64,000 bases of DNA. It comes from Eledone cirrhosa. Taxonomy: Eukaryota. Below are positions 14,201 through 46,080 of this stretch, piece by piece. Location: the NCBI GenBank assembly GCA_964016885.1, contig OZ024740.1:409510001-409574000 (forward strand), in the 5' to 3' direction. The position numbers and the translations under genes are program-made. The notes under the pieces are model-generated. The model was not told the origin of the DNA, did not search any database, and saw only the letters and a program-made list of their open reading frames with translations. Every line of letters begins with the position of its first letter. The first letter of the stretch is position 1.

Positions 14201-17200
14201 GTGTGTCTGTGTCTGTGTATCTGTGTCTGTGTGTATGTGTCTGTGTGTCTGTGTTTGTGTGCCTGTGTGTCTGTGTTGGTGTGTCTGTGTCTGTGTGTAT
14301 GTCTGTGTGTTGTGTCTGTATCTGTGTGTCTGCATCTGTGTGTCTGTGTCTGTGTGTCTGTGTCTGTGTGTCTGTGTCTGTTTGTCTGTGTCTGTGTTTC
14401 TGTGTCTGTGTGTCTTATCTGTGTGTCTGTATCTGTGTGTCTGTATCTATGTGTCTGTGTCTGTGTGTCTGTGTCTGTGTGTTAATGTATGTGTGTCTGT
14501 GGCTGTGTGTCTGTGTCTGTATGTCTGTGTCTGTGTGTCTGTGTGTCTGTGTCTGTGTATATGTGTCTGTGTGTCTGTGTGTCTGTGTCTGTGTGTCTGT
14601 GTTGGTGTGTCTGTGTCTGTGTGTATGTCTGTGTGTCTGTGTCTGTGTGTCTGTGTCTGTGTCTGTGTCTGTGTGTCTGTGTCTGTGTGTCTGTGTCTGT
14701 GTGTCTGTATCTGTGTGTCTGTATCTGTGGGTCTGTGTCTGTGTGTCTGTATATGTGTGTCTGTGTGTCTGTGTCTGTGTGTCTGTATCTATGTGTCTAT
14801 GTCTGTATCTGTGTGTCTGTGTCTGTGTGTTTGTATCTGTGTGTCTGTGTCTTTGTGTATGTATATGTGTCTGTGTCTGTGTCTGTCTTTCTGCGTCTGT
14901 ATCTGTGTGTCTGTGTGTCTGTATCTGTGTGTCTGTGTCTGTGTGTCTGCGTGTCTGTGTCTGTGTGCCTTTGTCTGTGTCTGTGTCTGTATCTGAATCT
15001 GTGTGTCTGTGTCTGTGTGTCTCTATCTGTGTGTCTGTGTCTGTGTGTCTGTGTCTGTGTGTCTGTGTCTGTATGTCTGTCTGTCTATATCTGTGTGTCC
15101 GTATATGTGTGTCTGTGTGTCTGTGTCTGTGTCTGTGTGTCTGTGTCTGTGTGTCTGTGTCTGTGTGTCTGTATCTGTGTGTCTGTATCTGTGGGTCTGT
15201 GTCTGTGTGTCTGTATATGTGTGTCTGTGTGTCTGTGTCTGTGTGTCTGTATCTATGTGTCTATGTCTGTATCTGTGTGTCTGTGTCTGTGTGTTTGTAT
15301 CTGTGTGTCTGTGTGTTTGTGTATGTATATGTGTCTGTGTCTGTGTCTGTGTCTGTCTTTCTGCGTCTGTATCTGTGTGTCTGTGTGTCTGTATATGTGT
15401 GTCTGTGTCTGTGTGTCTGCGTGTCTGTGTCTGTGTCTGTATCTGAATTTGTGTGTCTGTGTCTGTGTGTCTCTATCTGTGTGTCTGTGTCTGTGTGTCT
15501 GTGTCTGTATGTCTGTCTGTCTATATCTGTGTGTCCGTATATGTGTGTCTGTGTGTCTGTGTCTGTGTCTGTGTGTCTGTGTCTGTGTCTGTGTATCTGT
15601 GTCTGTGTGTTTGTATCTGTGTGTCGTTGTCTATGTGACTGTATATGTGTGTCTGTGTATGTGTGTCTGTGTCTGTATCTGTGTGTATGTGTGTCTGTAT
15701 CTGTGTGTCTGTGTCTGTGTGTCTGTATCTGTGTGTCTATGTGTCTGTATCTGTGTGTCTGCGTGTCTGTGTCTGTATGTCTTTATCTGTGTGTCTGTGT
15801 CTGTGTCTGTGTGTCTGTGTCTGTGTGTCTGTGTGTGTCTGTGTGTCTGTGTGTCTGTGTGTCTATGTATCTGTGTATGTGTGTCTGTGTATCTGTGTCT
15901 GTGTATCTGTGTCTGTGTGTCTGTGTGTCTGTGTCTGTGTGTCTGTATGTGTGTGTCTGTGTCTGTGTGTCTGTGTCTGTGTGTCCCTGTCTGTGTGTCT
16001 GTGTCTGTTTGTCTGTGTCTGTGTGTCCGTATCTGTTTGTCTGTGTGTCTGTGTGTCTGTGTTTGTGTGTCTGTGTGTCTGTGTCTGTGTTTCTGTATCT
16101 GTGTGTCTATGTATGTGTGTCTGTGTATGTGTGTCTGTGTCTGTGTGTTTGTGTCTGTGTGTCTGTATCTGTGTGTCTGTGTCTGTGTGTCTGTGTCTGT
16201 GTGTCTGTGTCTGTGTGTCTGTGTCTGTGTGTCAATGTATGTGTGTCTATGTGTCTGTGTCTGTGTGTCTGTGTGTCTGTGTCTGTGTGTCTGTATCTGT
16301 GTGTCTGTGTCTGTGTGTCTGTGTCTGTGTGTCTGTGTCTGTATCTGTGTCTCTGTGTCTGTGTGTTTCTATCTGTGTGTCTTTGTCTTAGTGTATGTAT
16401 ATGTGTCTGTGTCTGTGTCTGTGTCTGTATGTCGGTGTCTGTGTCTGTGTCTGCATATGTGTGTCTGTGTGTCTGTGTCTGTGTGTCTGTATCTGTGTGT
16501 CTGTATCTGTGTGTCTGTTTCTGTGTGTCTGTGTTTGTGTGGTTTTGTCTGTGTCTGTGTGTCTGTGTGTCTGTGTGTCTGTGCCTGTGTGTCTGTGTCT
16601 GTGTCTGTGTGTCTGTGCCTGTGTGTCTGTGTCTGTGTCTGTGTGTCTGTGAGTCTGTGTGTGTCTGTGTCTGTGTTTGTGTGTCTGTGTCTGTGTGTCA
16701 ATGTATGTGTGTCTGTGTATGTGTGTCTGTGTCTGTGTGTCTGTATCTGTGTGTCTGTGTCTGTGTGTCTGTATCTGTGTGTCTGTATCTGTGTGTCTGT
16801 GTCTGTGTGTCAATGTATGGGTGTCTGTGTATGTGTGTCTGTGTGTCTGTGTGTCTGTGTTTGTGTGTCTGTGTCTGTGTGTCTGTGTCTGTGTTTCTGT
16901 ATCTGTGTGTCGATGTATGTGTGTCTGTGTATGTCTGTCTGTGTCTGTGTGTCTGTGTCTGTATCTGTGTGTCTGTGTTTCTCTATCTGTGTGTCTGTGT
17001 CTGTGTGACTGTGTCTGTGTGTCTGTATCTGTATGTCTGTGTCTGTCTGTCTGTATCTACGTGTCTGTATCTGTGTGTCTGTGGCTGTGTGTCTGTGTCT
17101 ATGTGTCTGTGTCTGTGTCTTTGTGTCTGTGTCTGTGTGTCTGTGTATGTGCGTCTGTGTCTGTGCGTCTGTGTCTGTGTGTCTGTATCTGTGTGTCTGT

Positions 17201-18660
17201 GTGTCTGTATCTGTGTGTCTGTGTCCGTGTGTCTGTATCTGTGTATCTGTGTCTGTGTGTCTGTGTCTGTGTGTCTATATCTGTATGTCTGTGTGTCTGT
17301 GTCTGTGTGTCTGTATCTGTGTGTCTGTGTCTGTGTCTATGTGTCTGTGTCTGTGTGCCTGTGCCTCTGTGTGTGTGTGTCTGTGTATGTGTATGTGTGT
17401 CTGTGTCTGTGTCTGTGTGTCTGTGTGTCTGTGTCTGTGTGTTTGTGTCTGTGTCTCTGTAACTGTGTGTCTGTGTCTGTGTGTCTGTATCTGTGTCTGT
17501 ATCTGTGTATCTCTGTGTCTGTGTCTGTGTGTCTGTGTCTATGTGGCTGTGTCTGTGTGTCTGTGTTTGTGTGTCTGTATCTCTGTGTCTGTGTGTCTGT
17601 GTCAGTGTGTCTGTATCTCTGTGTCTGTGTGTCTGTGTCTGTGTGTCTGTGTCTGTGTGTCTGTATCTGTGTGTCTGTGTCTGTGTATCTCTGTTTATGT
17701 GTCTGTGTGTCTGTGTCTGTGTGTCTGTGTCTGTGTGTCTGTATCTCTGTGTCTGTGCCTGTGTGTCTGTGTCTCTGTGTCTGTGTCTGTGTGTCTGTGT
17801 TTGTGTGTCTGTGTTTGTGTGTCTGTGTCTGTGTGTATGTCTGTGTGTCTGTGTCTGTGTGTCTGTGTCTGTGTGTCTGTGTCTGTGTGTCTGTGTGTCT
17901 GTGTATGTGCGTCTGTGTCTCTGCGTCTGTGTCTGTGTGTCTGTATCTGTGTGTCTGTGTCTATGTCTGTGTCTGTGTGTCTGTGTCTGTTTGTCTGTGT
18001 GTCTGTATTTGTGTGTCTGTCTGTGTCTGTGTGTCTGTGTCTGAGTGTATGTATCTGCGTGTCTGTCTCTGTGTGTCTGTGTCTGTGTGTTTGTATCTGT
18101 GTGTTAGTATCTGTGTGTCTGTGCCCTTGTGTCTGTGTCTGTGTCTGTGTGTCTGTGTATCTGTGTGTCTGTGTCTGTGTCTGTGTCTGTGTGTCTGTGT
18201 CTGTGTGCTTGTATCTGTATCTGTGTGCCTGTGTTTCAGTGTCTGTGTGTCTGTGTCTGTGTGTCTGTGTCTGTGTGTCTGTCTCTGTGTCTGTGTCTAT
18301 GTGTCTTTGTCTGTGTCTGTGTGTTTGTGTCTCCATATGTGTGCCTGTGTGTCTGTGTCTGTGTGTATGTGTCTGTGTGTCTGTGTCTGTGTCTGTGTGT
18401 CTGTGTCTGTGTCTGTGTGTCTTTGTCTGTGTCTGTGTCTGTGTGTCTGTGTCTGTGTCTGCGTGTCTGTATACGTGTGTCTGTATCTGTTTCTATGTCT
18501 CTGTGTCTGTGTGTCTGTGTCTCTGTCTGTGTCTGTATCTGTGTGTCTGTGTCTCTGTATGTGTCTGTATCTGTGTCTGTGTCTGTATCTGTGTGTCTGT
18601 GTCTGTGTCTGTATCTGTGTCTCTGTATCTGTGTGTGTATTTGTGTTTGTGTAAATGTGT
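8287..18660. repeat. ~10.4-kb degenerate simple satellite built of TCTG(TG)1-2 / TATCTG units
   Basis: Direct inspection; rare variants recur as duplicated blocks. Confidence 0.97.
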
Positions 18661-18863: not shown

Positions 18864-19294
18864 GGCCGTCACAACCCGTCATGGCCGGCATGGGCTGGGG
18901 TTTGGCTTCTGTCGATCCATTGGTTATTGATTAGGCGAAACTTGCTGATGAAACCACATACGCCGATTATGCATTGATGCATAATATATGCAGACAGAGG
19001 GCTCAGTTCAACCGACTGCTTCATTAACTGTGGCCGAAACATGAGTCCGAGTACTATTATAGGCACCCGTTTTACGTGTATTGTATTGAAGCGAATAACT
19101 ATGTGTATAATCTGGGAATGTATCCTACATGGCCTATTGAGGTCGCTGAGATACAACCGGTCCTGGCATTGATAAACATGCTGGATCCGTCAACTCCTTA
19201 TTATATATATATAACGAAGGAAGTGTGGTAAGGAACCAGATGGACCATAACGCACCAGAGTACTCATTGCTTAGGGTTGTAGAGTGGGTAATAG

Positions 19295-19404
19295 GAAAAT
19301 CTTTGACCCCGACGGCAGAGCTCAAGCCGTTTCGACGGCTATTTCTGCGTCCAGAAATAGCCGTCGAAACGGCTTGAGCTCTGCCGTCAGGGTCAAACAT
19401 TTTC
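19295..19404. repeat. Near-perfect palindrome, 53-bp arms with a 4-nt loop
   Basis: GAAAATCTTTGACCCCGACGGCAGAGCTCAAGCCGTTTCGACGGCTATTTCTG-cgtc-reverse complement, with 2 mismatches. Confidence 0.95.
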
Positions 19405-19586
19405 GTATATATATATATATATATTTATTTATTTATTTATTGACGTATAGCACGGAGCATATGTGCATAAACACATATGCACCGTGTTGTATTATGACAG
19501 TATTGTATTCGCTCAATGTAAAAGAACAGAGCCGTTATATGTAAAAGAAACCATAGAACGCTTACATACTCAAACAGTTTTTATTT

Positions 19587-19631: not shown

Positions 19632-20473
19632 TTAATAAACACAGTGCTGAGTATAAGCTTCACCGAGCAATCGGAATACAATAGAGGGTAAAGATAGGGA
19701 GATCGGAAATAGCGAACAAGGAGGGAGTACATGTTCGGGTTGTTAAGCACCACAGCTAAATGCTAGGGCACAAGCAGATTTCACAAGATGCAGATACAAT
19801 TGATGGCACACAAAAGCAAAAAAATAGAAGCATGGTAAAAACATAATAAAAAAAATAAAATAATAAAAAAATAAAAGGAAGATAATATAAAGAGATAAAA
19901 AGTAAATAAAAAGGTAAAACAATTTTTTTTAATTTTTAAAAAGAAAGAAATGAAAACAGAAAGAAGAAAATGTTTTAAGCACATAAAAAAGCCAGAGGAA
20001 TTTAAGCGCTGGTCCCTAATAAAACGAGTGAATAGGATCTCCGTAACTTATAGTTATATAAGCACTAAGAGGTTCTTAAGGTACATCCAGAAAGACCACA
20101 GTAATCAAAATCTCCGCCATGGTATACATTTACAAGGTATACTGGTAGGTACCTGAATTACGTAGCCCAAGAGTGTTCCACAAGCATATAGACAGGTATC
20201 ACATAAATGCAAGCCATACACAAGCAAAATAGGGTTATTACAGGATAGAGATGAGTATAAGAAGTATACTACACATGCATATTAACCGTATAGGCTAGAC
20301 CAATCGGTTACATATGTCCCGAATGTCTAGGGGTAACTCTTTGCCAGTTGGTTTTACAGTAACTAAAATAAGCTTGTGGGGCTTTTGCTTCAGCTCTATA
20401 TTACAATAACCCCGCTTTGCTTGTGTATAGTTTGCTTTATATGTGGTACCTGTCTATATACTTGTTATACTGT

Positions 20474-20479
20474 ATATAC

Positions 20480-20533
<54 letters not shown>

Positions 20534-20536
20534 GTA

Positions 20537-20601
<65 letters not shown>

Positions 20602-20640
20602 GTATATATATATATTTATATGTATATCTATATATTTATA
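20474..20640. repeat. (TA)n microsatellite forming the left flank of PLE-1
   Basis: Direct inspection. Confidence 0.97.
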
Positions 20641-20843
20641 GCGGCGATGAATTAGTTTTGCGAGGTTTTTTATATGAAATCGTGTGTCGAAACAGATATT
20701 GTTATATTTGGGGAGGGTCATATTTGCGTAATATTGCCAGAATTAATAACAGAACACACTCACTGTTTGGTTGGTTTTCGCTTCTCGCTGTCTTTTATAT
20801 ATATATATCTGCGATCTAACTTACTCGGTCCTCAATGTTGCCA

Positions 20844-23377
20844 AAGTAAACAACAATACATCTAGCAATCATAACAATAATAATATTAATGCTAATGATA
20901 GAAACAACAACAACCACCATGATAACAATAATAGCAACACACACAACTATGACGATAGAAATAACGACAACCCCTTAGAGAAACTATTTTTCAACCCAGC
21001 TGACAAAACATATAAGATGGGTAATATCTATCCTACGAGGTTACCCTTTAATAAAAGAGTTTGCATACCACAGCAAATAGATGACGAGACGGAGGCACAG
21101 TTCACCATAGCTAGAAATAAGATTAGACAAGTAGTAGACAGGTACACTATGAGACAGAGCAGACCAGAGGCCCAACAACTTGGGATAAAACCTGTAGAAG
21201 GCTTGGTTAGCCTCAAGCAGCGCACAAGGGATGGTGAGGTAGTGTGTCTACCCACAGATAAGTCTGGTAGGATGTCAATAGATAGCATGCCGAACTACAT
21301 CGAGGCAATGCAACCCCACATCACCAACACGAGCGAAGTTGCACAACTAACACACGATGGGAGAGAAAAAATCCTCAACGCTCACATGATGATGTGGACT
21401 GACATCCTAAAGCCAAGCAGACGCACTGCCAACAACTTCCAGGCGTCTAACAATGGCATACCACCCTTGTATGGGCTCCGCAAAGACCACAAGACAGTCG
21501 ACGACCCGACAACAGGACCACCAACAAGACCCGTATGCGGAGCTAATATAGCTAGCAACTACAGGATCTCCTACTTCCTCTCAATGGTTATACGCCCCAT
21601 AATCAAGATGTCCCCAGATGTATGTGAAAGTACAGAGGACCTCCTCAGCAGAATCAGTGAGTGCAACAAAAACAGGAGCCTATCCAACTGCATAATAGGC
21701 AGCATGGATGTGGTGTCACTGTACCCATCCATTAACATTGATTTTGCTGTGAAAAGATGTGTGGAGATGATCATTGAGAGTGAGGTGGAGTTCTGCGACG
21801 TCGACACAGACGAACTGGGCCTCCTACTTAGACTTACCTACGACACTGACTACCTAGACAGCCATGACCTTAGATGTTTCTGCCCTAGTAGACCTATAAG
21901 AGGTAGACCCCCCACCATAACCTCAATGGCTAAAAAGACTCCCATAGGAAGGTGGATTGGGTGGACCAAAGCTATACGGACCCCCCAAAACACTGATCAG
22001 GTAAGAAAAATGGTCGCACATGCAATAGGGGCTAGTATCAAAACTACCCTAAAGGGCCACATATTTAAGTTCAATGAGAAAATCTACACCCAAAATGAGG
22101 GAGCAGCCATCGGCGTCAGCATAGCTGGTGATGTTGCCAACCCTTTCATGGTATGGTGGGAAAGGAGACTTAAAGATCTCCTTAATGAAAGCTCCATAGA
22201 CCTCATCATGTACTCTCGTTATGTAGACGATATCAATATAGTTATAAGAACACCCCCACTAGAGAGCACTAACAAGTTTGATTTAGAACGTAGCACGATG
22301 GAAAGCATCCAGCAGATAGCTAATTCCATACACCAGAGTATAACTGTAACTATAGACTTCCCTTCCAAACACCCTAACAATAGACTACCTGTATTAGACA
22401 CAGAACTCTGGATTAACACTATAGACGAGAGAGCCCAAATTCTCCACTCACACTATGCTAAACCCATGGCCTCCAAATACCTGATACTCAAAAACTCAGC
22501 AATGTCCAGTAGTGCTAAGTTTAATATTCTGATCGCAGATTTGGTACGAGTGATGAAGAATGTGTCCAGCATGTGCGACCCAACAGAAATGGAAGGACAC
22601 ATCCAACACTTCATCAACCGCATGCAGTTCTCTGGCTACAACCAAAGAGACAGAGTCAGAGTATACGAAGGAGCCATGGAAAAGTATAAGACCCTCATAG
22701 AACTGGACATGAAAGGAATTTGCCCACTATACAGGAGCAAATCATGGAATAGCTTAGATAGGGCTAGACATAAGATAGGGAAGGCCACATCATGGTACGA
22801 CAACCAGAGATATCAGAGTGTCATGTTTGTGGACGCCACCCCTGGAGGGAAATTAGCTAACCAGTGTAGAAAGGCCCTGAGAAAGACCCACTTAAAAATA
22901 AAGGTGGTAGAAAAGCCAGGAACCACCATAAAATCCCTGATCAGCAAAACCTACCCTTTTAAGAAAACCCACTGTACCAATAGGAAATGTATCATATGTA
23001 AGGTGAACCCCCGGATAAACTGTAAAACTAGAAACGTAGTCTATAGCATAAGATGTACAGAGGGTACTTGCAGAAACATGACAACAACATACATAGGTGA
23101 GACAGCTCGTAGCATAGGTGAAAGGATAGACCAACACTGGGGGGAACTAAAAGGACGAAAAAACGGGTCAGTACTATACGAACATGCTAGACAACAACAT
23201 GATGGTAACATAGACAACATAGAAATTAGAATAATATCTAAACATAGGAATGACCCAGCAGATAGGCAAATCAGAGAGGCCAGTGAAATAGAAATTAGAA
23301 GACCAAAGCTAAACAGAAAGAATGAGTGGAACAACAACAACACCCAAACAAACAACACTGACCTAAGAGAAGTATAA
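20844..23377 (+). CDS. PLE reverse transcriptase + C-terminal GIY-YIG endonuclease (open frame, N-terminus truncated)
   Basis: Motifs TDKSGR, LYGLRKDHK, SMDVVSLYPSI, GAAIG, RYVDD, LPVLDTELW, HYAKPM, C..C...NCKTRNVVYSI.C, YIGETARS..ER..QH, RQIREA, LNRKNEW. The ORF-track start at 20771 lies inside the inverted pLTR and is not a real start. Confidence 0.93.
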
Positions 23378-23665
23378 ATAAGTAAATAAAATAAAATAAA
23401 ATAAGATAAATAAATACATACACAAGCACAATAACAACAAGCACATAAACACACACTAGTCACCCAGCAGACACAACACTATACACACTAGTCACACATC
23501 ACACATAACACTATACACACACGCAAACGCATGCGCAAAGAAGACAAAATAAAATAAGATAAACAAACAAGCAAATAAATAAATAAATATATAGACAGAC
23601 TGAACAAAAAAAAAAAAAAAAAAATGGCGTAGACATACAACACAACAGGAGGAACAATGAATATA

Positions 23666-23710
23666 ACACCACTGACGATGTTGCAGATGTGCAACGAAAG
23701 ATTTATGTAA
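23666..23710 (+). ncRNA. Minimal hammerhead ribozyme motif in the PLE-1 3' pLTR (weak stem I)
   Basis: CA CUGACGA U GUUGCA GAUG UGCAAC GAAA G-AU-U UA UG; stem I is only 2-3 bp. Confidence 0.65.
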
Positions 23711-23925
23711 ATTATGTAAACTATATATATGTGTTTGTGTCTATATTGTATCTGTATTATTTTTGACCGCCGGTCAGTCAATGGCAACATTGAGGACCGA
23801 GTAAGTTAGATCGCAGATATATATATATAAAAGACAGCGAGAAGCGAAAACCAACCAAACAGTGAGTGTGTTCTGTTATTAATTCTGGCAATATTACGCA
23901 AATATGACCCTCCCCAAATATAACA

Positions 23926-24094
<169 letters not shown>

Positions 24095-24303
24095 TCGTTT
24101 CTGAATTTGTTTAGCAAGATTCTTTATCTGAAATCGTGTGTTGAAACCGATATTGTTATACTTTGGGAGGGTCATGTTGCCAATAAGAAACACACGCACC
24201 AGTTGCTTTCACTTCAATTTATTATAATAAATTTATAAATTTAGGAATTTATAAATTTCTGGTTGGTTGGTTGGTTCCACAACCAGATAGTTGTTTATAT
24301 ATT

Positions 24304-24346
24304 GTCAAAGTTCTTTCGTCACACATTCTGTGACCTCTTCAGTGAC
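24304..24346 (-). ncRNA. Minimal type-I hammerhead ribozyme in the PLE-2 3' pLTR
   Basis: GUCA CUGAAGA G GUCACA GAAUG UGUGAC GAAA G-AA-C UU UGAC: stem I GUCA/UGAC, 6-bp stem II, 1-bp stem III, CUU triplet. Confidence 0.85.
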
Positions 24347-24548
24347 TGGGATTCTTTTCTTTGTTTTTGTGCCTCTCCTTTGTTCTGTCCTACGCCATTT
24401 TGTTTATGTGTGTGTGTTGTGTGCTCAGTTTGCGCATGCGCCACATCCGGGTGTCTGTGTGTGTTTATGTTCATTTATTTATTTGTTTATTTACATGTTA
24501 CTGGTTGGTTGTTTGTTCTATGTGTGTGTGTGTGTTTTCATTTTGTCC

Positions 24549-27500
24549 TTAATTGTAAGTTGTGATGTTGCTGTTCCACTCATATTTTCTATTTAATTTT
24601 GGTTGTAATTCTTTTATGTTTATTGCTTCTGTGATTTGTCTAAACATTGCGTCTTTTCTGTGTGTAGATTCTATTTTTATTTCTATGTTCTCTAATTTAC
24701 CCGTGTGTTCTATTTTAGCATGTTGGTAGAGTACAGATGATTCTTTACTATCTTGAAGGTCTCGCCAGTGTTCATTTATCCGTTCCCCTACACTACGATC
24801 TGTCTCACCTATGTACACTATATTGTTGTCTCTACATTGTCCTTCAGTCCATCTTATGCTATACACTACATTTCTAGTTTTACAGTTAATATGGGGGCTT
24901 ATTTTACAGGTTATACATTTCTTATCTATACATGAGGGTCTTTGAAAAGGGTATGTCTTGCTAATAAGTCTTTTTACGGAGGTACCTGGTCTTTCTACTA
25001 TCTTAATATTGAGTTTATGTTTATCTAGGGCCCTTCTAAATTTGTAAGCTAATTCACCTCTAGGAGTTGTATCGATGAACATTACACTCTGGTATTTATT
25101 GCTATCATACCATGAGTTTATTCTATTAGCCTTGTTCCTAGTTCTTTCTATTCTATTCCAAAATTTGCTCCTATATAAGGGGCAGGTCCCATTTATGTCA
25201 TTATTTACCATTTTTTCCCATTTAGTTCTGGCTCCTCTATACACTCTGATTTTATCTCTCTGATTGTAGCCAGAGAACTGCATACGGTGGATGAAGTGTT
25301 GTATGTGTCTCTCTAGTTCTTCGGGGTTGCACATGCGGGACACGTTTCTCATCACCCGTACCAAATCCGCAATCAGTATGTTGATTTTGGTATGGTCCGA
25401 AATGGCCGAGTTTCGGTGGATCAGATGTTTGGAAGTCATGGGTTTGGCATAATGGGAATGGAGGATTTGTTTTTTGTTATTAATGGTATCTAACCAGAGC
25501 TCTGTGTCTAGTACAGGTAATCGATGGTCGGGGTGTTTACTTGGGTAGTCTATAGTAACTCTAATACTCTGGTGGATGGAGTTAGCTATTTGCTGGATGC
25601 TTTCCATTGTGTTTTTCTCTAGTTCCTGGCTGTTCTCTAGTGGGGGTGTCTTAACTACGATGTTTATATCATCAACGTAGCGGGAGTACATTATCAGGGT
25701 TAATGGGTCTTCTAATTGTTCTTTAAGTTTAAGTTTAAGTCTACTGTCCCACCATACCATGAATAAGTTAGCTATGTCGCCTGCAATGCTAACACCAATG
25801 GCTGCTCCTTCCTCTTGGGCATATGTTTTTCCATTAAATTTGAACATATGTTCCTTAAGGGTTAGTTTTATGCTGGCCCCTACCGCATATGCAATCATTT
25901 TCTTCAGTTCATCGTGGTTTTCGGGTGTCCGTATGGCTCTGGTCCACCCGTTCCATCTATCTGTGTGGGTTTTCTTGGCCATTGAGGTAATGGTAGGTGG
26001 TTTGCCTCTTGCTGGTCTTGTAGGGCACAGGTTGCTAAGGTCATATGTATCTAGGTAATTATTACTATAGGTAAGTTTAAGTAGGAGTCCCAGCTCACTG
26101 GTATCAATCCCACGGAACTCAACATTGCTCTCACCGATTAATTCTACACATTTCTCCACAGCAAAATCCACATCAATAGATGGATACAGGGACACAACAT
26201 ACATACTCCCTATTATGCAGTTTGTTAGGTCCCTAGATCGGTTACTCTCGCCGATTCTGCTGAGGAGGTCCTCCGTGCTGTCACATACATCTGGGAACAT
26301 TTCAATGATGGGGCGTATGATCAGGGAGAGGAAGTAGGACAGTCTGTAGTTACTAGCAATGTTAGCTCCACAGATTGGCCGTGCTGGTGGTCCCGTGACA
26401 GGGTCACTGCCCGTTTTATGGTCTTTTCGAAGCCCATACAACGCCGGCACGTCATTGTTCCAGGCCTGGAAGTTGTTGGCAGTCCTTTTGTTGGGCTGCA
26501 TTATATTCGTCTACATCACCATATGGGCATTGAGGGCTTTTTCTCTATCCTCATGCTCCTGTGGTGTTACCTCTCTTGTGTTAGTGATGTGGGGTTGCAT
26601 TGCCTGGATGTAGTTTGGCAGGCTGTCAACCGACATTCTGCCAGACTTGTCTGTTGGAAAGTATGCTATCTCTCCATTACGTGAGCGCTGTATGAGCTTA
26701 CGCAAGCCATTTGCAGATTTTTCTCCCAGTTGCTGGGCCTCCATTCTATTATGCTTCTTGCTATACTGTTCTATAATATTTCTAAGTTTGGATCTAGCTA
26801 TACTAAATTGTGCTTCTGTTTGTTCATCGACCTGCGACGGCAATTGCGTGCGTTTGTTAAATGGTAAAGTCGTGGCGTGGACTCGTCGCAGGTCGAACGA
26901 TTTATCGGAGGGATTATAAAAAGTAGAGTTCCAGGCTGCTGCTTTATGTGTACTAGTGCTATTGTTATTGTTAGTTGTGTTGTTTCTATTTCTATTTCCA
27001 CCAACAGCCTCATGGTTGTTTCTATGTCTCTCATAATTACTCCTGTCTCTTTCCACTGGCTCATTGTTGTTATCTACCCTATTTTGTGTGTCTGTGTGTT
27101 CGTCTTGGTTATTTTCTTTGTCCTTAGTCTCCCTTTTCCTTTTAATCCTATTACTTTCCCTTATTTCTGTGATTTCTGTGCTACTGTCATTACTTGTTTT
27201 CTGTGTCTGTGTGTTTGTTAAGATTGTGGTGGTGGTGAGAGGCATTGAATGTGTGTGTGTTGTTGTTGTTGATGTGTGCTGTTGTTGATGTGTGTTGTTG
27301 TTGTCTCCGTGTGTGTTATTATTGTTGTGTGTGTTGTTATTGTTGTCTGTGTCTGCGTGTCTGTTGTTGTTGTTTCTGGGTATGTTATTATTGTTGTTGT
27401 TGTTGTTGGTGTGTGTGTTGTTGTTATTGTTGTTTGTGTCTGTGTGTCTGTTGTTGTTGGGATGTGTGTTGTATATGTGTGTGCGTATATTGTTACTTTT

Positions 27501-28256
27501 GTTTTTGTTTTTGTTGTTGTTTTTGAGGCTCCAACGTAATTTTGTAAATGATTTTTCTATTTCTGACAGACAACTAATCATATTTACCTTCTTGAATGTC
27601 GCAAATTTCGGTGGTAGAAGTAATACAGATAACTCATCGTCATCTATTACCGTGTTGCCGTATATATTTGTGTTGTTGTTGTTGAACTCATTTGTTAATG
27701 AGGTGTCGGCCATATTTATACCGTCAATTTTGTCGGGATATCTATTGGTATTCTCTACAGTATCCTGATTTAGCTTTATCTGCCTAAGCCACTTTAGTTT
27801 CTTGTTAAAGTGCTTATCACATTCTTGAGCAATGTACTGTTCTTCAGGACGTATAAGGTTTATAAATATTAGTTTCTCTCTTGGTGTGGTGATCCTAGCT
27901 ATTTCTTGTATTAGGTTACGCTTATGTTTTTCTTGATGACTTAATTCTCTATAGATCTTCTTTTTTATGTTTAGAATTAGTGTTCGTTTTAGCCTATCTG
28001 CTTGTTTTTTGGTGAGTTGTAATCTTCTTACGTCGGTGTTGATGGTGTTGGTGTAAACTCGGGACGAGGCACATTCTTTTATGAAGTGTAGTTGTCGAGA
28101 TGTTATGGTTTTTCGTAGACAACAGAACATGGTGGTTTTCAGTATCTTGTTAGCCTGGCTAAGGCTTACGATATTTCGTTTCTGAATTTGTTTAGCAAGA
28201 TTCTTTATCTGAAATCGTGTGTTGAAACCGACATTGTTATACTTTGGGAGGGTCAT
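24549..28256 (-). pseudogene. PLE-2 ORF (~1235 codons: N-terminal domain, Asn/Thr-rich linker, RT, GIY-YIG), inactivated
   Basis: One reading frame from ATG 28256 with an in-frame TAG at 26511-26513 where PLE-1 has Trp. The first RT catalytic Asp is replaced (SMYVVSL vs SMDVVSL). RYVDD and YIGET are retained. Confidence 0.92.
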
Positions 28257-28340
28257 GTTGCCAATAAGAAACACACGCACCAGTTGTTTCACTTCAATTT
28301 ATTATAATAAATTTATAAATTTAGGAATTTATAAATTTCT

Positions 28341-28350
28341 TATATATATG

Positions 28351-28417
<67 letters not shown>

Positions 28418-28474
28418 GTATATATATATGTATATATATATGTATGTATATATATATGTATATATGTATATATG

Positions 28475-28535
<61 letters not shown>

Positions 28536-28624
28536 GTATATATATATGTATATATATATATGTATATATATATGTATATATATATGTATATATATATATG
28601 TATATATATATGTATATGTATATG

Positions 28625-28656
<32 letters not shown>

Positions 28657-28674
28657 TGTATATATTTATATGTG

Positions 28675-28725
<51 letters not shown>

Positions 28726-28798
28726 ATATATATATATATGTGTATATATATATATGTATGTATATATATATATGTATACATATATATATATATATATA
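28341..28798. repeat. (TA)n/(TATG) microsatellite
   Basis: Direct inspection. Confidence 0.97.
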
Positions 28799-28814
28799 AA
28801 TGTAAGTATGTATG

Positions 28815-29160
28815 TAGGCAACCACGTCACTTTTTTGTTCAACACTGACACAGGAACTGACACAGGAACGATGTACTAGTTTCAAGCTTATTAGCTATCG
28901 TCAGCATCGCGTACCTTCCTGCCAGATGGTTGAACATCTGAAAGTATATACTTTCCTTATGCATATTAACGGCTGAACAGCCTAATTTGCATATCGAGTG
29001 AGTTTAGTCGGCCGGGCGCAACGAAAACGATAAATGGAATAGAATGAAACGTTCCTGTGTCAGTGTTGAGCAAAAAGGTGACGTGGTTGCCTAAAGACTG
29101 TACGGCGTAATTCGGGTTGTTTGTTTACAAACAAACCGAGCATTATAATAAATGTTCGGT
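28815..29160 (-). mobile_element. Non-coding mini PLE-like element with HHR and inverted pLTR tail
   Basis: Inverted repeat 28815-28870 / 29050-29092 flanks a canonical minimal HHR. Confidence 0.7.
28869..28909 (-). ncRNA. Minimal type-I hammerhead ribozyme
   Basis: CGAUG CUGACGA U AGCU AAUA AGCU U GAAA C-UA-G UA CAUCG: 5-bp stem I, palindromic stem III (ACUAGU), GUA triplet. Confidence 0.9.
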
Positions 29161-29320
29161 AAACCGATACGTCGATATATATATGTGTGCATGTATGTAT
29201 AAATATACATACTAATGTACGTATGTATACATATATGTATGTACGTATACATACATACATATTTACATTTAAGTAACTGCCGTACTAAGAGTGAGAAGGG
29301 AAATTTCGTTTCATTCTATT

Positions 29321-29372
<52 letters not shown>

Positions 29373-31539: not shown

Positions 31540-32772
31540 TCTGGTTTTAGAATTTCGCAAATGTTTGCCAATAGAGAGAGAGTTGGTTTCTAACATAGAC
31601 ACAAGACTCTCTCATTGGAATTTACACAACATCAATTAGGTAGATTATGTATGCATGCATGCATGTGTAGATATGGATGTTATTGTATGTGTGGATGTAT
31701 ATGTTTTGAGTTTTATGTGTGCATGTGTATATGCTTTGTATCTGTACATGTGTATATGCAGTTATTAGATGCAACATTTTTGGAATGTTTTACATATTTT
31801 TTCTGTCCATTAATGGATTGTACTTATAATTTCCTAACTAGTTGTATTCTTTCTGTTCCTGTGAAGCCTAGCTTCTCAAGATTTGTATTGAGGCAGTTAC
31901 TAACATACCCCAGTGCCCCAATAATCACAGGCATAAATCTGAAGGTATAATCGTGGTGAAGTATCTGCAGATTTTTCATCAGTTTTGCATAAATATTCTC
32001 CTTTTCGCTAATCTTTGATATTATATTGGCATCTGCTGGACAGCTAACTTCCACTACTGTGCATGCCTTCTTTTCCCTGTCCCATATCATTATATCTGGT
32101 CTGTTATGCTTGCATTTTATTGGGGGTTTTTACTGGAACATTCCACCAGTACTCTTTCATATTATGTATATGTATGTCTTCCACATTGCTGTAGCTTTTA
32201 ATGTGTTTATTATCGGGCTATCTTTTCTACGGATTGCATCGTACAGTGTTTTGGCCATTATATCATGCCTCATAGGCAGATAGTACCGCGATGACATCTT
32301 TGGACAGCTGCTTATGACCTGGGTGACATCTTCGATGTTAATTCTGCAGAGTCTGCACTTGATATCACATCTAGGTGTTTTACCTGCATCCTTATCTCTT
32401 TTGTGAATCAGGTATTTCGTGTTGATTTCCTGTTCTTGGATTGCAAAAGCGTATCCTTCAAAGTGGGAGCCAATATAGCGGTTGTTGGTCCAAGATAGAT
32501 TACTTTCCTTATCTATATTACTCTCACTCTGGAGCTTCCTGGCAACATATCCATGCATGATTTTTTGCTGAAAAGCATGCAGTCTTTCATCCATGGATTC
32601 ACTGCGATACTGCTGAGCAACTTCCCTGGGTGTGAGTTTTTGATTATCACACAGGGAATACCTCTCGAGGAGTTCCTTCCCAACTCTCATGATCTTAAGT
32701 CTATTCGAGAGACGGGCTCCTGCGCTTTGAGGTTCGTAGATATTGTCGGAGGGATATGATGCGACATTCAAA
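31525..32772 (-). mobile_element. 5'-truncated R4/Dong-like non-LTR retrotransposon (CCHC + restriction-like endonuclease) with (CATA)n tail
   Basis: EGYAFAIQEQEINT, CRLC....EDVTQVISSC, RHD, HNRPDIMIWD...VVEVSCP...K..EK...Y, PVIIGALG; frameshifted; 3' UTR stem-loop and (CATA)n. Confidence 0.88.
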
Positions 32773-32794
32773 TACATACATGTATGTATGCATC

Positions 32795-33025
32795 CATCTA
32801 TGTATGTATGTTCTGGTTTTATAATTTCACAAATGTTTGCCAATAGAGAGAGAGTCGGTTTCTAACATAGACACAAGACTCTCTCATTGGAATTTACACA
32901 TCAACTAGGTAGATATGTATGCATGACTGCATGCATACATGTGTAGATATGGATGTTATTGTATGTGTGGATGTGGATGTTTTGAGTTGTATGTGTGCAT
33001 GTGTATATGCTTTGTATCTGTATAT
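32795..33025 (-). mobile_element. Second 3'-UTR-only copy of the same R4-like family
   Basis: ~230-bp direct repeat of 31525-31750, also ending in (CATA)n. Confidence 0.85.
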
Positions 33026-36663: not shown

Positions 36664-37557
36664 GCGTTCCATAGAGGATAAGTGGAGGGGAAGAGCGACG
36701 ACGTACTTGGGGAAACTCTAGGCGTCGACAAAAATCAACTAACCAATCTCTTCGGAAGAACTTTTGGGCCGGGGCCCATGGACAATTTCCAGAAATCCCT
36801 GGCCTGGCAGTGCTACCAAGGAGCTTTGTTAGTTCGGGATAAACTCTACAGGCATGGAAGTGCCATCAGCCTGGCAATCCGAGATGCGCGCAGGGCGACG
36901 AAACCGTCCTGCACGCACTCGTCCAGTGTCCGAGCATTGCTGACTTGTGGGTTTATGTCGAACACCTGCTGTCGCGTGTAGAACGGATCCGGCTATCAGC
37001 TGAGTCCATCGTGAGGATTGCCCCGCCCTCTTCCTTTAGCCGGGAAGGACAGGCAGTTTTTATCTGTCTGGTGGCCATGGCGAAAGAGATAGTATGGTGG
37101 ACACGTTTGAAAGGGCTGAAGACGAGCACTTACCTCTTCGGTGATGCCCTGATTAACTTTTTCAAATTCATTTGAAAAGGAAAATCAGGGTAAAGAGGGA
37201 AGTGCGCTCTTCCCAGCATTTTGTTGAAAGATGGGTGAGAGAGGCAAGAATGGCCCGAATGAATGGGCCTACTCTGAGTATGTGGCTGTAAATTGAAGGT
37301 GGAAAACTGGGAGGGAGCACTTGCCCTGGTGGTCAGGGTCACTGTGGCTTTTTTTAATGCGTTTTCTCCACGATGGCCCTCGAAGTCTCCCCCCTATTGG
37401 GGAATTTTTCATTGTTACTTTTTTTTGCTACATCCTCTGTTTTTGTTTTTTTTACACGCAGAAATGCCCATTTATACCGTCCTGTATTGTCCTGTATTGT
37501 CCTTAATGTCTTACTTTGTGTAAACCGTTGTGGTTAATAAAGAAAGCATCATTATTA
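36664..37557 (+). mobile_element. Tx1/L1-like LINE 3' fragment with ORF2 C-terminal CCHC region and 3' UTR
   Basis: KSLAWQCYQGALLVRDKL...PRCAQGDETVLHALVQC (frameshifted); ends AATAAAGAAA + (ATT). Confidence 0.85.
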
Positions 37558-37774
37558 GGGCAGAGGATTGGCAGTATCAGTAGAGGGTCGGACGCCATGC
37601 TTTGACGCATAGAGTTACGGTCCTTGCCATTCTGAGTTCAAATCCCGCCGAGGTTAACTTTGCCTTTCATCCTTTCGGGGTCGATAAAATAAAGTACCAG
37701 TAATATACTGGGTTAATTGCTGGCCTTGTGCCAAAAGTAGAAACAATTATTATTATTATTATTATTATTATTAT
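37558..37774 (+). mobile_element. Full-length Nin-domain tRNA SINE with (ATT)n tail
   Basis: A box, B box, Nin core and (ATT)~10. Confidence 0.93.
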
Positions 37775-38928: not shown

Positions 38929-40700
38929 ATGAATAATAGCAGTAGCAGCCGTAATAACAGCAGCAGCAGCAACAGTGACAAGGAAAACAATAATAGCAGC
39001 CGCAACAGCATCAGCAGCAGCAGCATAGACAACAACAGCAGCAGCAGCAACAGCAACAACAACAACAACAACCACAGCAACAGCGGCGGCGGCAGTCGTA
39101 GTACCAGCAGCAACAACAAAAGTAACAGCAGCTCTGACGACAACAACAATAACAGCAAGAAAGAAAAGCCAATCTCATTTGCAGGTATCGCAAAGAACCT
39201 GGAAACCATCCTTATAACAAATGAGGAATTACAGGAAGCAAAGAAGATGATGAGAAAAACTGGACACCGAGCAATCTGCAAGGCAGCCGAAACATTTTTC
39301 GAAACCCAACAGCACTGTACGGTCACGTACCGTACAGTAAGCACAAAATCCCGTAGGGTTGAAAGAGCCACAGTGGCTCAAATACACCCGAGGCAAGAAA
39401 TATGCCACCGTGGACGTGCTTTTTGCCACACCCCAGGAGGCAAAGGCTCAATCCTTAGTGACCCTAAGAAGCGAGGAAATGGTGTTGGTGCCCTCCTACT
39501 GCGGACAAAAAATTGTGAGGGTCAAACTGACCCCCCCCCCCCCCTTTGGCTGGCCGCGTCTGTCCTCGTCGGAATCGAGGACAAAACAACTGTACTGCAA
39601 GTACAGAAAAAGTAAGAGAAGATTGGGTCGGCTCCTCCATTGAAATGTTAATCCAAACCAACCAGGAGTGCATCGAAGCTATCCCGGATGTGATAGACTT
39701 CGATAACGGCACTCAACAGCCCATAAGTGTTGAGGGCAAACGCCCGAAATGCTTTTGCTGTGGATCGAAGACTCACCTCAGGGCCTTCTGCAATGAGAAG
39801 ACCCTGAGAAAGGAGAAAACCCCCCTCCTTCCGAAACCGGCTCCACTGCTACCAGCAATAGGACAGGCGGCAACCAGGAAGGATAAGTCCGTGGCACCCA
39901 TACCCACGCCACGGAAATCAAGAACAGCAGCAGCAGTGGAAGTATTAACAACAACAACAGCAATACCAACTGCAGCTGCAACAGAGACTCCACTGCAAAC
40001 ATCACCAACAACAACAAGTGAAAGAGTGGAGCTGGTACTCCTCCCCGACCTCACAGAATCGGACATGGAGTGTGAGGTGGGAGAGGGATGGCAAAAGGTC
40101 GCAAGAAGGCACAAACGCAGAAGCAGCGCATCGTCGCCTTCGAAAAGGGAGGAAAGAAATGAAAAAAGGGTAAAGAGACTTACAGCAGCAACACCACCAA
40201 CACCATCACCACCCACACTAGCACCACCATCACCACCGGCGGCAAACCCACTGCAAACAACAACACCTTCAACACCACCACCACAAGCACCAACATCGCA
40301 AACACAACAACAAAACACACACACCCTGCAACAACGACAAGAAATAGCAGACCCCCCCCCCCCCACCCTCCCCCGACCCCAACACGACCCCCAGAAAAAC
40401 AAATGCACAGCAATAAATACACACAACAAGAAACTAATGACTTACATAATTGAACACAGATATTTCACAGCACGACTACATAATACCAGCACCAATCAAA
40501 ACACCAACGAACATAAGACTGGTAAGAATAGCACAAAAACAATACACAAACAATAAAACGAAATTCCCCAACGCAGTTGGTGATTTCAGAGACCTAGGAG
40601 GGACACTCAGCCGGAGAGTATATTCGGATATACTCACAGAAGAGCCGACGACCAACCGAAGGGACGATTCAACGGTCCCTTCACAGACGATCAAGTGAAA
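38929..40700 (+). pseudogene. Frameshifted ORF1 (gag-like, CCHC zinc knuckle)
   Basis: KPISFAGIAK; VEGKRPKCFCCGSKTHLRAFC; W..V.RR; Pro/Thr-rich tail; split over three frames. Confidence 0.8.
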
Positions 40701-40776
40701 AGGGATGGAGAAACCATCCTTCCTCTACGAGAAGTAAGGTAAGTGGTCTTTCCCATCTTTTCCACTCCATTTCAAC

Positions 40777-41757
40777 ATGACCTCATTCAGAATAGGCAGC
40801 ATAAATGCGCGTGGCTTGGGGTCGTCATGGAAGCAGGGCCACCTGCTCAACGACCTCAGGTCACTAAACATAGATATAGTGGCCATCAGCGAGACTAGAA
40901 TCTCCGAAGCACGGGCCTTCGCACCGATCTTCGGCGGCTACGATGTGTACGCATTTCCCAGCCGTCCTGGATCGGGGGGAGGAGTTGCTGTGCTTTTTCG
41001 GAGAGGTTTGGATCTCGCCATACGGGCCATCTTCCTGGACCCAGAAGGTAAGTTGGTGGTGCTGGACGTGATCAGCGGAGACGGGCAAGCTTTCAGGCTA
41101 GTGGCCGTCTATGCCCCGACAGGAGCAGGGCGGCCTGATTTCTTCCGGCGTCTGGAGACCTTTCTAGGAACGTCCCGCTCTTTAGTGTTAGTGGGCGACT
41201 GGAACACGATCTTAGATGCACGCTGGGACTGTGTGGGATTAGCGGATAGGGGAGGAGGGTTCGAAAGCCTCACCAACCTGCTCAGGCGTTTTTAACTGTC
41301 TGACAGGTACCGATTGGATTTCCCGAATGTGCCAATGTGGACTTGGACAAACCGCATAGGGTCATCCAGATCATATCTAGATAGAGTATTTTGTAGGGAA
41401 ATAGATAGGTCTAGCATAGGCTGTCCACAATTCAAGATAGTCAGATACACGGACTACAAATTCGTGATATGTGTGCTTGACTTAGATAGGCTTCATAGAC
41501 GAGGACCCGGCTACTGGAAGCTAAACGCGTCCTTACCAGCGCGCAAGGCCTACAGAGACCGGATTAGCGAACTAGTTAAGCGGGCGTTGACGGGGGCCAT
41601 CGTCAACAAAAAGTGGTGGTTTGCTCTGAAAAGAGCGATTAGAATAGAGTCCATTAAGTTTAGTAAGGCTTTAGCAATAGAGAAAAATAGAACAGAGGGA
41701 GAACTAGTTAGAAAATTAGACGAGGCGCTTAGCAAAAGCATCGCGACCGACGTACTT
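40777..41757 (+). pseudogene. ORF2 N-terminal APE-type endonuclease (L1/Tx1 clade) with internal stop
   Basis: SINARGL, DIVAISET, GGVAVL, LVAVYAP, VGDWN, WTW...SYLDRVF, TDYK, GPGYWKLNASL; TAA at 41293. Confidence 0.9.
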
Positions 41758-41848
41758 GAAATGCCCATTTGTACCGTCCTGTATTTCCTGTACTGTCCTT
41801 AATGTCTACTTTATGTAAACCCTTGTGGTTAATAAAGAAAGTATTATT

Positions 41849-43124
41849 GTTCTTTGAGTCTCAGTCATTGATGTTAGTTAACTGGAAAGTTTGTTGAAAT
41901 GAATATCAAGCCACTACCTGCAGCCTCAGATATTCAGGAAGTATCGGAGGGTTCTTGCTGTTCCCAGCAAGTATGCCTTTTGAAGCGTTCCAAAGAGCGG
42001 GGCAGGACAATTTTCTTTAACCATCCCTAGAAACTTTTTGAGATAGTACCTAGTACGCCTATTACAATCGGGACCACTTTGACTTCATGGCAGTTCCAAA
42101 TCCTTTTTACCTCCCACTTTAAGTCCTGGTATCGGTTAATTTTCTCCCTCTCCTTCTCTTGCACTCTCGTGTCGAATGGGCAGGCCACATCCACAATCAG
42201 GCACGACCTTTTTTCCTTCTCCAAAACCACCAGGTCAGGTCTATTGTGTTCCAGTTTCTTGTCCGTCTGTATCCTAAAATCCCACAGCACCTTCACCTGA
42301 TCGTTTTCTATCACCGACTCTGGCTTATGCTCATACCACTTCTCAGCGTGTGGTAAATTGTTTACTTTGCATAGGTGCCAGTGGATCACCCTGCCCATCT
42401 CCAGCCTTTATAGTGAATCTGGGCTAGGTGTTTACACTCGGATACAATGTGAGCCACAGTCTCCTCTCTCTCTCTCTACAGATCCTGCACAGTGGGCTAG
42501 CCTCCTCCTTGTAAATATGGTGTTTCAACCACTTCGTTTTGAGGGCCTGATCTTGCGCAGCCATTAGCATTCCTTCTGTAGCCTTTTTAAGGTCTCCTCT
42601 TTTCAACCAGTTCCATGTCTGTGGATCTCTGAATTCAGTTTTCTCAAAGAAGGTACTATGAAGGGATTTTTCATGAAGGCTGCTCTTTCTCCTTGTTGTT
42701 ATTTCCTCCTTGGACATCCCCTGGTCTATTGTCCTCTCCTTCAGTACAATTCTGAGCATTGGCTCCTTACTATCAGTCACGTATTTGTGTAGGTTGTTTT
42801 TCTCCATCTGAACACAGTCCTCTATGCTGATAAGACCTCTTCCACCTTCAGATCTCCTTAAGTAGAGTCTATCGACATCACTCCTCTTGTGTAACATGTT
42901 GTAGATAGTCAATAGCTTCCTAGTCTTCTATCCAGTTCTTTTTGTTCAGCAACATTCCATCTCAGAATTCCCGCACTGTACCTAATAATAGACAGAGCTC
43001 GGGGATTTACTGCACTTATGGCATTCCTACTGTTCAGATGTGACTTTAATACGCTCCTTACTCTCCGAATGTATTCAGATCTTATCAATTCCTTCATTTT
43101 TTTGTTCTTGATGTCATCAGCCTC
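41849..43124 (-). mobile_element. 5'-truncated R4/Dong-like LINE (post-RT, CCHC, RLE endonuclease)
   Basis: EYIRRVRSVLKS.LN, RLYLRRSEGGRGL, EGMLMAAQDQAL, CRIC, WYEHKPESV, LWDFRIQTD, RPDLVV...IVDVACP..EK..RYQDL, VPIVIG.LG; the AAT-rich 3' end abuts the Tx1 tail. Confidence 0.9.
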
Positions 43125-43125
43125 A

Positions 43126-43257
43126 GGGCGGTGGATTGGCAGTATCGATAGAGTGTCGGACAACATGCTTCACAACATAGAATTACTGCTCTTTACGTTC
43201 TGAGTTCAAACCTCGCCGAGGTTAGCTTTGGCTTACGGGTTCGATATAATAAAATAC
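43126..43257 (+). mobile_element. Nin-family SINE, 3'-truncated and diverged
   Basis: GGGCGGTGGATTGGCAGTATCG ... CTGAGTTCAAACCTCGCCGAGGTTAGC. Confidence 0.85.
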
Positions 43258-44750: not shown

Positions 44751-44806
44751 GTATGATATTACAAAAAAAAGGGAATCAGTGTTGCGACGAATAGAATTTA
44801 TTGGAC

Positions 44807-44896
44807 ATATTACAATCGTTTCTCTGGCGACCAGCTCGAGGCACGATCGATGTGATGATCGAACCTGACTCTGAAAATCGCAAGGTCCTCAGATAC
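44807..44896 (-). ncRNA. Hammerhead ribozyme motif with extended stem II (left arm)
   Basis: Exact reverse complement of 44938-45027. Confidence 0.72.

Positions 44897-46038: not shown

Positions 46039-46080
<42 letters not shown>

Follow-up and report, generated by a model that had tools for sequence, protein, structure and literature searches.

A head-to-head hammerhead repeat between (TA)n tracts of Eledone cirrhosa, probably a non-LTR retrozyme copy inserted by Penelope-like enzymes

The DNA analysed here (the window) is a stretch of 64,000 nucleotides of Eledone cirrhosa (GCA_964016885.1, contig OZ024740.1, positions 409,510,001 to 409,574,000 of the forward strand), repeat-rich animal DNA with long microsatellites. 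Two Penelope elements, A and B, and a short retrozyme-type copy lie end to end in it, split only by (TA)n tracts at 20473-20640, 23926-24091, 28341-28798 and 29323-29369. The three adjacent insertions at TA look like repeated use of one TA target. The short insert is bounded by the last two of these tracts, and no target-site duplication is readable within the TA. Established at this locus are a hammerhead motif, two head-to-head arms, common segments of 18 nt and 20 nt, (TA)n at both ends and a high copy number. The features are as follows.

20641..23925, plus strand: Penelope element A, with (TA)n at either end and an ORF at 20750-23377
24093..28340, minus strand: Penelope element B, with direct terminal repeats and (TA)n at either end; its frame (28298-24549) has one in-frame stop, at 26511-26513
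28341..28798, no strand: (TA)n/TATG microsatellite, left flank of the insert and likely integration target; also adjoins the 5' end of element B at 28340
28797..29051, minus strand: direct arm (arm B, 255 nt), whose order in RNA sense is X, body, hammerhead, Z carrying a 12-nt duplication, Y
28797..28816, minus strand: segment Y, 3' end of arm B, the same as 29252-29271 in 19 of 20 nt; in reads it has the same upstream and downstream neighbours as the Y of arm A
28815..28857, minus strand: segment Z, the sequence 3' of the cut, the same as 29051-29093 in 41 of 43 nt
28844..28869, minus strand: 12-nt tandem duplication in the 3' strand of the extended helix I, omitted in 1,358 of the 5,687 reads placed there
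28868..28910, minus strand: type I hammerhead motif of canonical metazoan architecture (helix I 6 bp, helix II 4 bp on U.U, helix III 1-2 bp with a palindromic loop, GUA triplet)
28911..28936, minus strand: bulge and 5' strand of a long helix I extension whose predicted partner is Z (17 additional pairs in the register of arm A)
29034..29051, minus strand: segment X, 5' end of arm B, an exact 18-nt copy of the arm A 3' end
29048..29053, no strand: head-to-head junction, an AACGTT palindrome whose CG (29050-29051) is common to both arms
29050..29324, plus strand: inverted arm (arm A, 275 nt), whose order in RNA sense is Z from +4/+6, hairpin-bearing spacer, AT-rich hairpin, Y, 35-nt segment, X
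29112..29159, plus strand: two predicted hairpins (29112-29139 and 29136-29159); six of nine visible head-to-head joints of other copies resume at 29108-29120
29174..29251, plus strand: AT-rich low-complexity hairpin
29252..29271, plus strand: segment Y in arm A
29272..29306, plus strand: 35-nt segment between Y and X, which with X makes up the 53-nt extension ("tail") of the inverted arm; variants lie beside Y in reads
29307..29324, plus strand: 3'-terminal segment X of arm A, which passes into (TA)n
29323..29369, no strand: (TA)n tract, right flank and likely integration target
777-929, 1744-1943, 2870-3033, 3664-3788, 4671-4868, 7219-7464, 7936-8066, 37557-37745 and 43125-43260, both orientations: short interspersed repeat of about 110-200 bp (at least nine places, 75-97% alike)

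The rest of the window is occupied by repeats of other kinds. Four near-perfect palindromes, MITE-like or fold-back, lie at 3819-4612 (794 bp), 19291-19408 (118 bp), 44756-45075 (320 bp) and 46078-46448 (371 bp). A GT/CT-rich microsatellite covers 10 kb (8290-18636), and a 35-bp satellite with 468 copies and 91% matches (47599-64000) runs off the window end. Retroelement fragments were found at 39531-41802, 32157-32861, 42027-42927 and 43338-43901. The first contains an endonuclease/exonuclease/phosphatase domain (PF03372, 40738-41292) behind a low-complexity frame, and the frames in the other three look, by eye, like C-terminal remnants of LINE and Penelope elements.

The hammerhead lies on the minus strand. 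Helix I pairs 28905-28910 with 28873-28868, the core letters CUGACGA and GAAA occupy 28904-28898 and 28883-28880, helix II (28896-28893/28888-28885) has 4 bp and an AAUA loop on a U.U base, and helix III reads AC-UA-GU. With the GUA triplet these assignments agree with the predicted cut at 28874|28873, where an earlier, sequence-only reading of this DNA had also placed it. The same reading had called the motif a textbook minimal hammerhead. A hammerhead is indeed present on this strand, but it is neither minimal nor textbook, with U.U at 10.1-11.1, no Rfam match and helix sizes of the canonical metazoan kind. As described in PMC4209133 (Cervera and de la Pena 2014), canonical metazoan motifs have a helix I of 6 bp, a helix II of 4 bp and a helix III of 1-2 bp with a palindromic loop, and the minimal motifs of Penelope elements have a long helix II preceded by a single unpaired base, a helix I that is short (4-5 bp), and G10.1-C11.1. 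The insert motif departs from this minimal pattern in its 4-bp helix II, its 6-bp helix I with a long extension and its U.U, whereas its helix sizes match those of the canonical metazoan tandem-repeat hammerheads of the same paper, a likeness of motif and fold only. The U.U below helix II is shared with axolotl HHR_Amex2 and the weak palindromic helix III with HHR_Amex1. Axolotl retrozymes are described in PMC7229834 (Cervera and de la Pena 2020) with U.U below helix II and a one-pair helix III with a palindromic tetraloop, and an axolotl motif with the same U.U is reported there to cleave weakly as a monomer and better as a dimer. In the giant squid genome, 235 Rfam hammerhead-1 loci have been counted (PMC6962438).

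A strict hammerhead scan missed the motif because of the U.U, and a relaxed descriptor (helix I of at least 5 bp) was adopted afterwards. It gave one motif in 32,069 non-repeat bases on both strands and none in any of 100 dinucleotide shuffles. Rfam returned no match at the gathering threshold and no hammerhead among 48 matches at E up to 10, and ribozyme-core pattern scans gave no match in metagenome contigs, viral contigs or prokaryote genomes. By itself, the 41-nt motif folded no better than shuffles (z -1.3). In reads of other copies, A-U replaces G.U at 28910 (4,627 of 4,676 reads). Of the 37 variable positions listed, a count that rests on 40 of 71 rows, none falls within the 27 core and helix II positions, where 2.8 were expected (P 0.055), and one falls in loop 2.

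The inverted copy noticed earlier was confirmed, with an exact match of 15 nt (28856-28870/29050-29064) and 41 of 43 nt alike over 28815-28857/29051-29093. Two further short inversions had been pointed out. The one at 29034-29051/29307-29324 (segment X) is exact over 18 nt and has no further match in the window when up to 3 mismatches are allowed. The other (segment Y, 28797-28816) is real, but its partner is 29252-29271 and not 29248-29271, and three look-alikes with two mismatches lie in TATG microsatellites. The inverted arm reaches further than the direct arm, as had been read, by 53 nt. Since X stands both at the end of arm A and at the start of arm B, the arms close into one unit of 438 nt, and the extra inversions are thereby explained as overlaps of a circularly permuted unit. 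Arm B lacks about 160 nt between Z and Y, with the join at a TA microhomology. The inferred unit of about 438 nt replaces the earlier estimate of about 350 bp. It has a GC content of 37% and its longest ATG frames are 53 and 66 aa. An ORF for reverse transcriptase and GIY-YIG between terminal repeats is absent from the unit, which is not an autonomous Penelope-like element, and long direct terminal repeats are absent from the insert. Folded as a circle, the unit is predicted to be 65% paired (z -6.0, 0 of 60 shuffles; z -3.4 and 0 of 100 shuffles without the AT-rich hairpin), and the predicted lowest-energy circular fold contains the hammerhead helices. A microRNA identity of 29174-29280 was rejected, as its Rfam matches are far below gathering and reflect TA-rich hairpins.

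Other copies were sought in sequencing data. Parts of the stretch are held by 20 of the 23 listed runs (best share 0.40 of 52 words), with no RNA run among those listed, and the family was sampled in four of the 23 at 85% likeness. It was matched by 7,028 of 17.1 M contigs in run X1, 6,361 of 16.3 M in X2 (the same sample as X1), 2,461 of 17.6 M in X4 (a different organism label) and 22,108 of 12.5 M RAD reads in X21 (0.18%), none of these figures being a copy number. The read comparison skipped 29174-29335 as repeat. Our analysis revealed that hammerhead, Z and spacer stand in line in other copies, at the joints 28871/29050 (429 reads, 26 starts), 28856/29065 (500 reads, 25 starts) and 28834/29101 (2,784 reads, 14 starts). 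On the 3' side of 29051, 777 reads carry AAATT, the next letters of the unit, for five letters only before they scatter, the behaviour expected of a library cut at AATT. In three rows (52, 32 and 23 reads), Y has a variant of the 35-nt segment as its immediate neighbour. Most of the inferred junctions of the 438-nt unit are backed by reads of other copies. Besides the reads that omit the 12-nt duplication, 1,406 more diverge before 28856 without it. A joint from 28961 to 28797 (3 starts) and 834 loose ends behind 28961 suggest a shorter variant of the unit, with about 90 nt missing and a length near 350 nt, and several loose-end rows belong to a subfamily with a different Z segment. At 29070 the letter of arm A is lacking in 3,236 of 3,271 reads, and at 28831 that of arm B in 374 of 399; each arm thus has a substitution that nearly all reads lack, so the copy at this locus is not fresh. 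Neither a head-to-tail dimer nor a piece spanning the whole unit was found among the matched reads and contigs, with 29174-29335 skipped, and the locus copy itself has circularly permuted arms, one ribozyme and no tandem array. The RAD library is rich in chimeras (64% of placed reads continue into unlike sequence). Strong read ends at 28984, 28987 and 29112 were considered as element ends and rejected, as they coincide with AATT sites and were taken as RAD library cuts.

Both neighbouring Penelope elements encode reverse transcriptase (YVDD), C-terminal GIY-YIG-like and C-x4-C-x2-C linker motifs. Element B is nearly whole (about 1,250 codons, an asparagine-rich N-terminal part, terminal repeats 98.5% alike) and shares 72% DNA identity with element A over 2.3 kb. 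Its protein has its nearest named relative in Octopus vulgaris, with 68% identity across 88% of the query. Pfam gave no match for the proteins of A and B, and the structure bank none for that of B, so the label of Neptune-like Penelope rests on motifs, architecture and homologues named RT-domain proteins. All four ends of the two elements are at (TA)n or nearly so. Element A carries a 144-bp inverted copy of its own 3' end (20700-20843/23782-23925, 100% identical), with the inverted arm 59 nt longer. Degenerate hammerhead cores of minimal type lie in the 3' regions of both elements, at 23672-23712 (plus strand, A) and 24342-24304 (minus strand, B), with a 6-bp helix II preceded by an extra base and a helix I of 2 bp in A and 4 bp in B. 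These fit the minimal pattern, in contrast to the canonical motif of the insert. No sequence common to the insert and the terminal repeats of A or B was found, the best of six local alignments being equalled by 4 of 200 shuffles; A and B therefore show the mechanism in this genome and not the parent. The idea that the insert is the 5' repeat of element B was also rejected, with no common sequence and with the repeat of B itself ending at 28340. Positions 28170-28182, in the end region of B, and 29300-29312, in the insert tail, are alike in 12 of 13 bases with opposite RNA polarity, probably by chance.

The insert bears the signature of a Penelope insertion, namely an inverted 5'-truncated arm, a palindrome or microhomology at the junction, and an AT-rich target. 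Inverted 5'-truncated copies and tails are described as routine in Penelope elements by PMC8557442 (Craig et al.), where the linker is proposed as the source of the microsatellite bias of Neptune elements. Palindromes and microhomology are common at inverted junctions of Penelope insertions according to PMC3846280, which also reports mobilisation in trans via terminal repeats. With the Neptune-like insertions of these two papers and PMC11167929 the insert also shares the extension of one arm and the microsatellite target. Such elements cut and extend both strands in vitro (PMC11167929); the anole Penelope protein studied there does so on AT-rich DNA, starting within its RNA at two nearby sites. 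Unlike them, the insert has no ORF, a canonical and not a minimal ribozyme, and an extension of 53 nt (59 nt in element A), compared with 30-40 nt in print. Its arms also overlap by 18 nt, the 3' end of one with the 5' end of the other, an overlap that element A does not show.

Taken together, these findings suggested that the insert is probably one dispersed copy of a many-copy, ORF-free hammerhead repeat, a non-LTR retrozyme with an inferred 438-nt unit, put into (TA)n by Penelope-like enzymes. The earlier view of a non-coding, retrozyme-like passenger of Penelope machinery thus gains support from the ORF-free closed unit, the high copy number and the (TA)n ends, which are as in the neighbouring Penelope elements. 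Animals are already known to carry such elements, and this locus adds a further example: PMC7229834 describes non-LTR retrozymes with type I hammerheads in axolotl, in corals and in mussels (350-390 bp), and proposes Penelope elements as their helpers (see also the review PMC7761336). The insert resembles these in its type I hammerhead, its small non-coding unit (150-450 bp there, 438 inferred here), GC below 50%, many copies, size variants, a self-paired fold predicted to leave the ribozyme free to form, and co-occurring Penelope elements. It differs from them in consisting of two head-to-head arms in TA with one ribozyme and no tandem array, and in being known from DNA alone; inversion junctions are not described in the results and discussion of PMC7229834. 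A preprint by Li, Clavereau and Pollet (bioRxiv 10.64898/2026.07.22.740005) derives non-LTR retrozymes from Penelope terminal repeats on the evidence of co-occurrence and likeness, mainly in vertebrates, and reports that eight of nine predicted retrozyme dimers were uncleaved and one was cleaved. The same parent and helper are proposed there, and dispersed monomer-type copies are common among those retrozymes. Unlike in the preprint, the evidence here is insertion geometry, and the insert shows no likeness to repeats of the neighbouring elements. Nor does it fall under the preprint's definition of an active retrozyme (two units with ribozymes), since a search allowing up to 3 mismatches gave a single motif for the element and for the whole window.

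Where the inverted arm starts relative to the predicted cut bears on the template that was copied. It had been read as beginning 3 nt after the cut. Arm A does begin at +4, but the CG at 29050-29051 is common to both arms, and the start therefore lies anywhere from +4 to +6. The chance of a start that near the cut is 1.4% for one end, 2.7% for either 5' end and 4.6% for a window of +/-10, all calculated post hoc. We then examined 15 of 108 joints in other copies, plus 12 of 65 rows with letters between, and nine proved head-to-head like the locus. Their sense arms resume at 29055 (+9), 29108, 29117 (twice), 29118, 29119, 29120, 29138 and 29146. Eight of the nine visible joints thus start at +62 to +100 and one near the cut, a share that chance allows (P 0.48); among the seven with printed letters between, one starts near the cut. 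The near-cut joint, 28816 to 29055, is carried by 142 reads with 2 starts, at about +9, and may have used the self-complementarity of helix I. Excluded from the inversion count were two 29110-to-28797 rows (probable ligation products), the same-arm deletions 28906/28944 and 28925/28966, and a colinear 28961/28797 row. The joints give a biased picture: Z can be placed at two positions, it differs between diverged subfamilies, and chimeras may have arisen in assembly or PCR. Six of the nine joints cluster at +62 to +74 (simulated P 0.008). A hot spot there was considered and set aside, as divergent subfamilies regain alignment close to these positions, two of the rows have unknown letters between their two sides, and the hairpin is partly self-complementary (68-84% over 25 nt, starts 29108-29120). 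In the neighbours, the starts lie at about +76 (element A) and about +48 (element B) from tentative cut sites, both being hand offsets. The likeness of the inverted arm to that of a neighbouring Penelope element, which had been suggested earlier, stood as far as the longer inverted arm is concerned (53 vs 59 nt), but the arm of element A starts at about +76 from its own degenerate motif.

A template of linear RNA with a ribozyme-made 5' end, whose reverse transcription to that end would be recorded in arm A, is an addition to the preferred reading, and one that we regard as doubtful. The nearness of arm A to the cut, the read joint at about +9 and the fact that every visible start, including those of elements A and B, is downstream of the predicted cut all argue for it. 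Against it stand the remote starts of eight of the nine joints, the 3-5 bases missing at arm A, and the junction itself, which is a CG microhomology within a palindrome, a known Penelope feature (PMC3846280). Furthermore, the anole Penelope element inserted as usual in vitro when its ribozyme was mutated, and none of its RNA reads had an end at the cut (PMC11167929). Upstream starts could also sit among the other 93 joints. A cut 5' end could account for where arm A starts, yet truncation and microhomology are more likely, and a start by the predicted cut probably does not prove copying of cut RNA. DNA-level evidence for reverse transcription of a self-cleaved RNA end, as claimed from the sequence earlier, is not established by a single copy with a microhomology and palindrome junction when eight of nine other joints lie elsewhere. 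Such a record in the DNA here is a possibility open to testing and not a result. The main alternative for the inversion itself is a later event at the DNA level, in which template switching in replication or repair by the microsatellites would have inverted part of a plain head-to-tail copy. The long (TA)n on both sides, the 12-nt slippage duplication and the 160-nt microhomology deletion in the same copy fit such an event, as does the age of the copy indicated by its rare substitutions (29070, 28831). We consider it quite unlikely, however, since the RNA 3' ends of both arms are at TA, which is the geometry of the adjacent element A, and nine further head-to-head joints are visible in reads and contigs.

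Two other explanations concern the nature of the repeat. The arms could be truncated terminal repeats of a long coding Penelope element absent from the window, as most Penelope hammerheads are truncated single copies, some in opposite-strand pairs 100-700 bp apart (PMC4209133), and retrozymes resemble Penelope terminal repeats (bioRxiv 10.64898/2026.07.22.740005); besides, 24 of 732 loose ends were examined, which leaves room for a coding relative. This is made very improbable by the order of the segments, because X comes after the spacer in arm A and before the ribozyme in arm B, leaving no space for an ORF. Moreover, no long frame is found in the 275 nt past the cut, unlike in A and B, where the repeat continues into the ORF, and the insert motif is canonical while theirs are of minimal type. 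It is still harder to believe that the hammerhead is an inactive look-alike in a hairpin-rich MITE-like repeat moved by another enzyme. The missing Rfam match, the U.U in place of the usual G-C and the poor folding of the isolated motif are what such a look-alike would lead one to expect, but all core letters are present in the right geometry, which none of the 100 shuffles produced, no listed variant falls in the core, and the same helix II variant cleaves in axolotl (PMC7229834). In addition, the ends of the insert are not terminal inverted repeats of one unit.

Under the preferred reading, a retrozyme copied by Penelope-like enzymes, the locus could have arisen as follows. Tandem copies would be transcribed, and the hammerhead would cut the multimers to unit length, probably as a dimer because helix III has only 1-2 bp with a palindromic loop. 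A TA-targeting Neptune-like protein with reverse transcriptase and GIY-YIG would nick both strands of the microsatellite, and each nicked strand would prime cDNA on one RNA of more than unit length, either a circle or a multimer of about 660 nt left partly uncut. One priming site would be where Y ends in the second unit (+225), the other where X ends in the first (+278). The first cDNA would extend back across a cut site left intact, skip about 160 nt by way of the TA microhomology and stop at the second priming site; a stop where the second cDNA was primed would give the 18-nt overlap. Such closeness of two independent ends has a chance of about 8% (36/438, hand arithmetic). Finally, the ends of the two cDNAs would be joined through the CG microhomology. 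In both arms the RNA 3' ends face TA, as in element A. The proposed scheme resembles L1 twin priming, in which a single RNA with two primers would yield an inverted 5' portion, its outer end adjoining the beginning of the direct portion. The insert differs from this in having no poly(A) tail, in that both proposed primings are internal, and in its TA target.

Penelope elements are candidates for the enzyme source that moves animal retrozymes, whether from circles or from cut linear RNA, on the grounds of co-occurrence and sequence likeness, and in vitro an insertion did not need ribozyme cleavage (PMC11167929). Among the papers listed by our literature search, none dealt with cephalopod retrozymes or described retrozyme inversion junctions. 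The single copy at this locus does not decide the matter. A high-copy family with a Penelope signature lets copy ends be scored against the cut site in one assembly. It is possible, though we think it unlikely, that the whole family is the footprint of a Penelope enzyme copying a retrozyme, with both TA nicks primed on one linear, ribozyme-cut RNA of more than unit length and with arms that start at or downstream of the cut and never upstream. If this were true, the helper of animal retrozymes would be named, cleavage in vivo would be shown from DNA, and a linear multimer, not a circle, would be the mobile intermediate.
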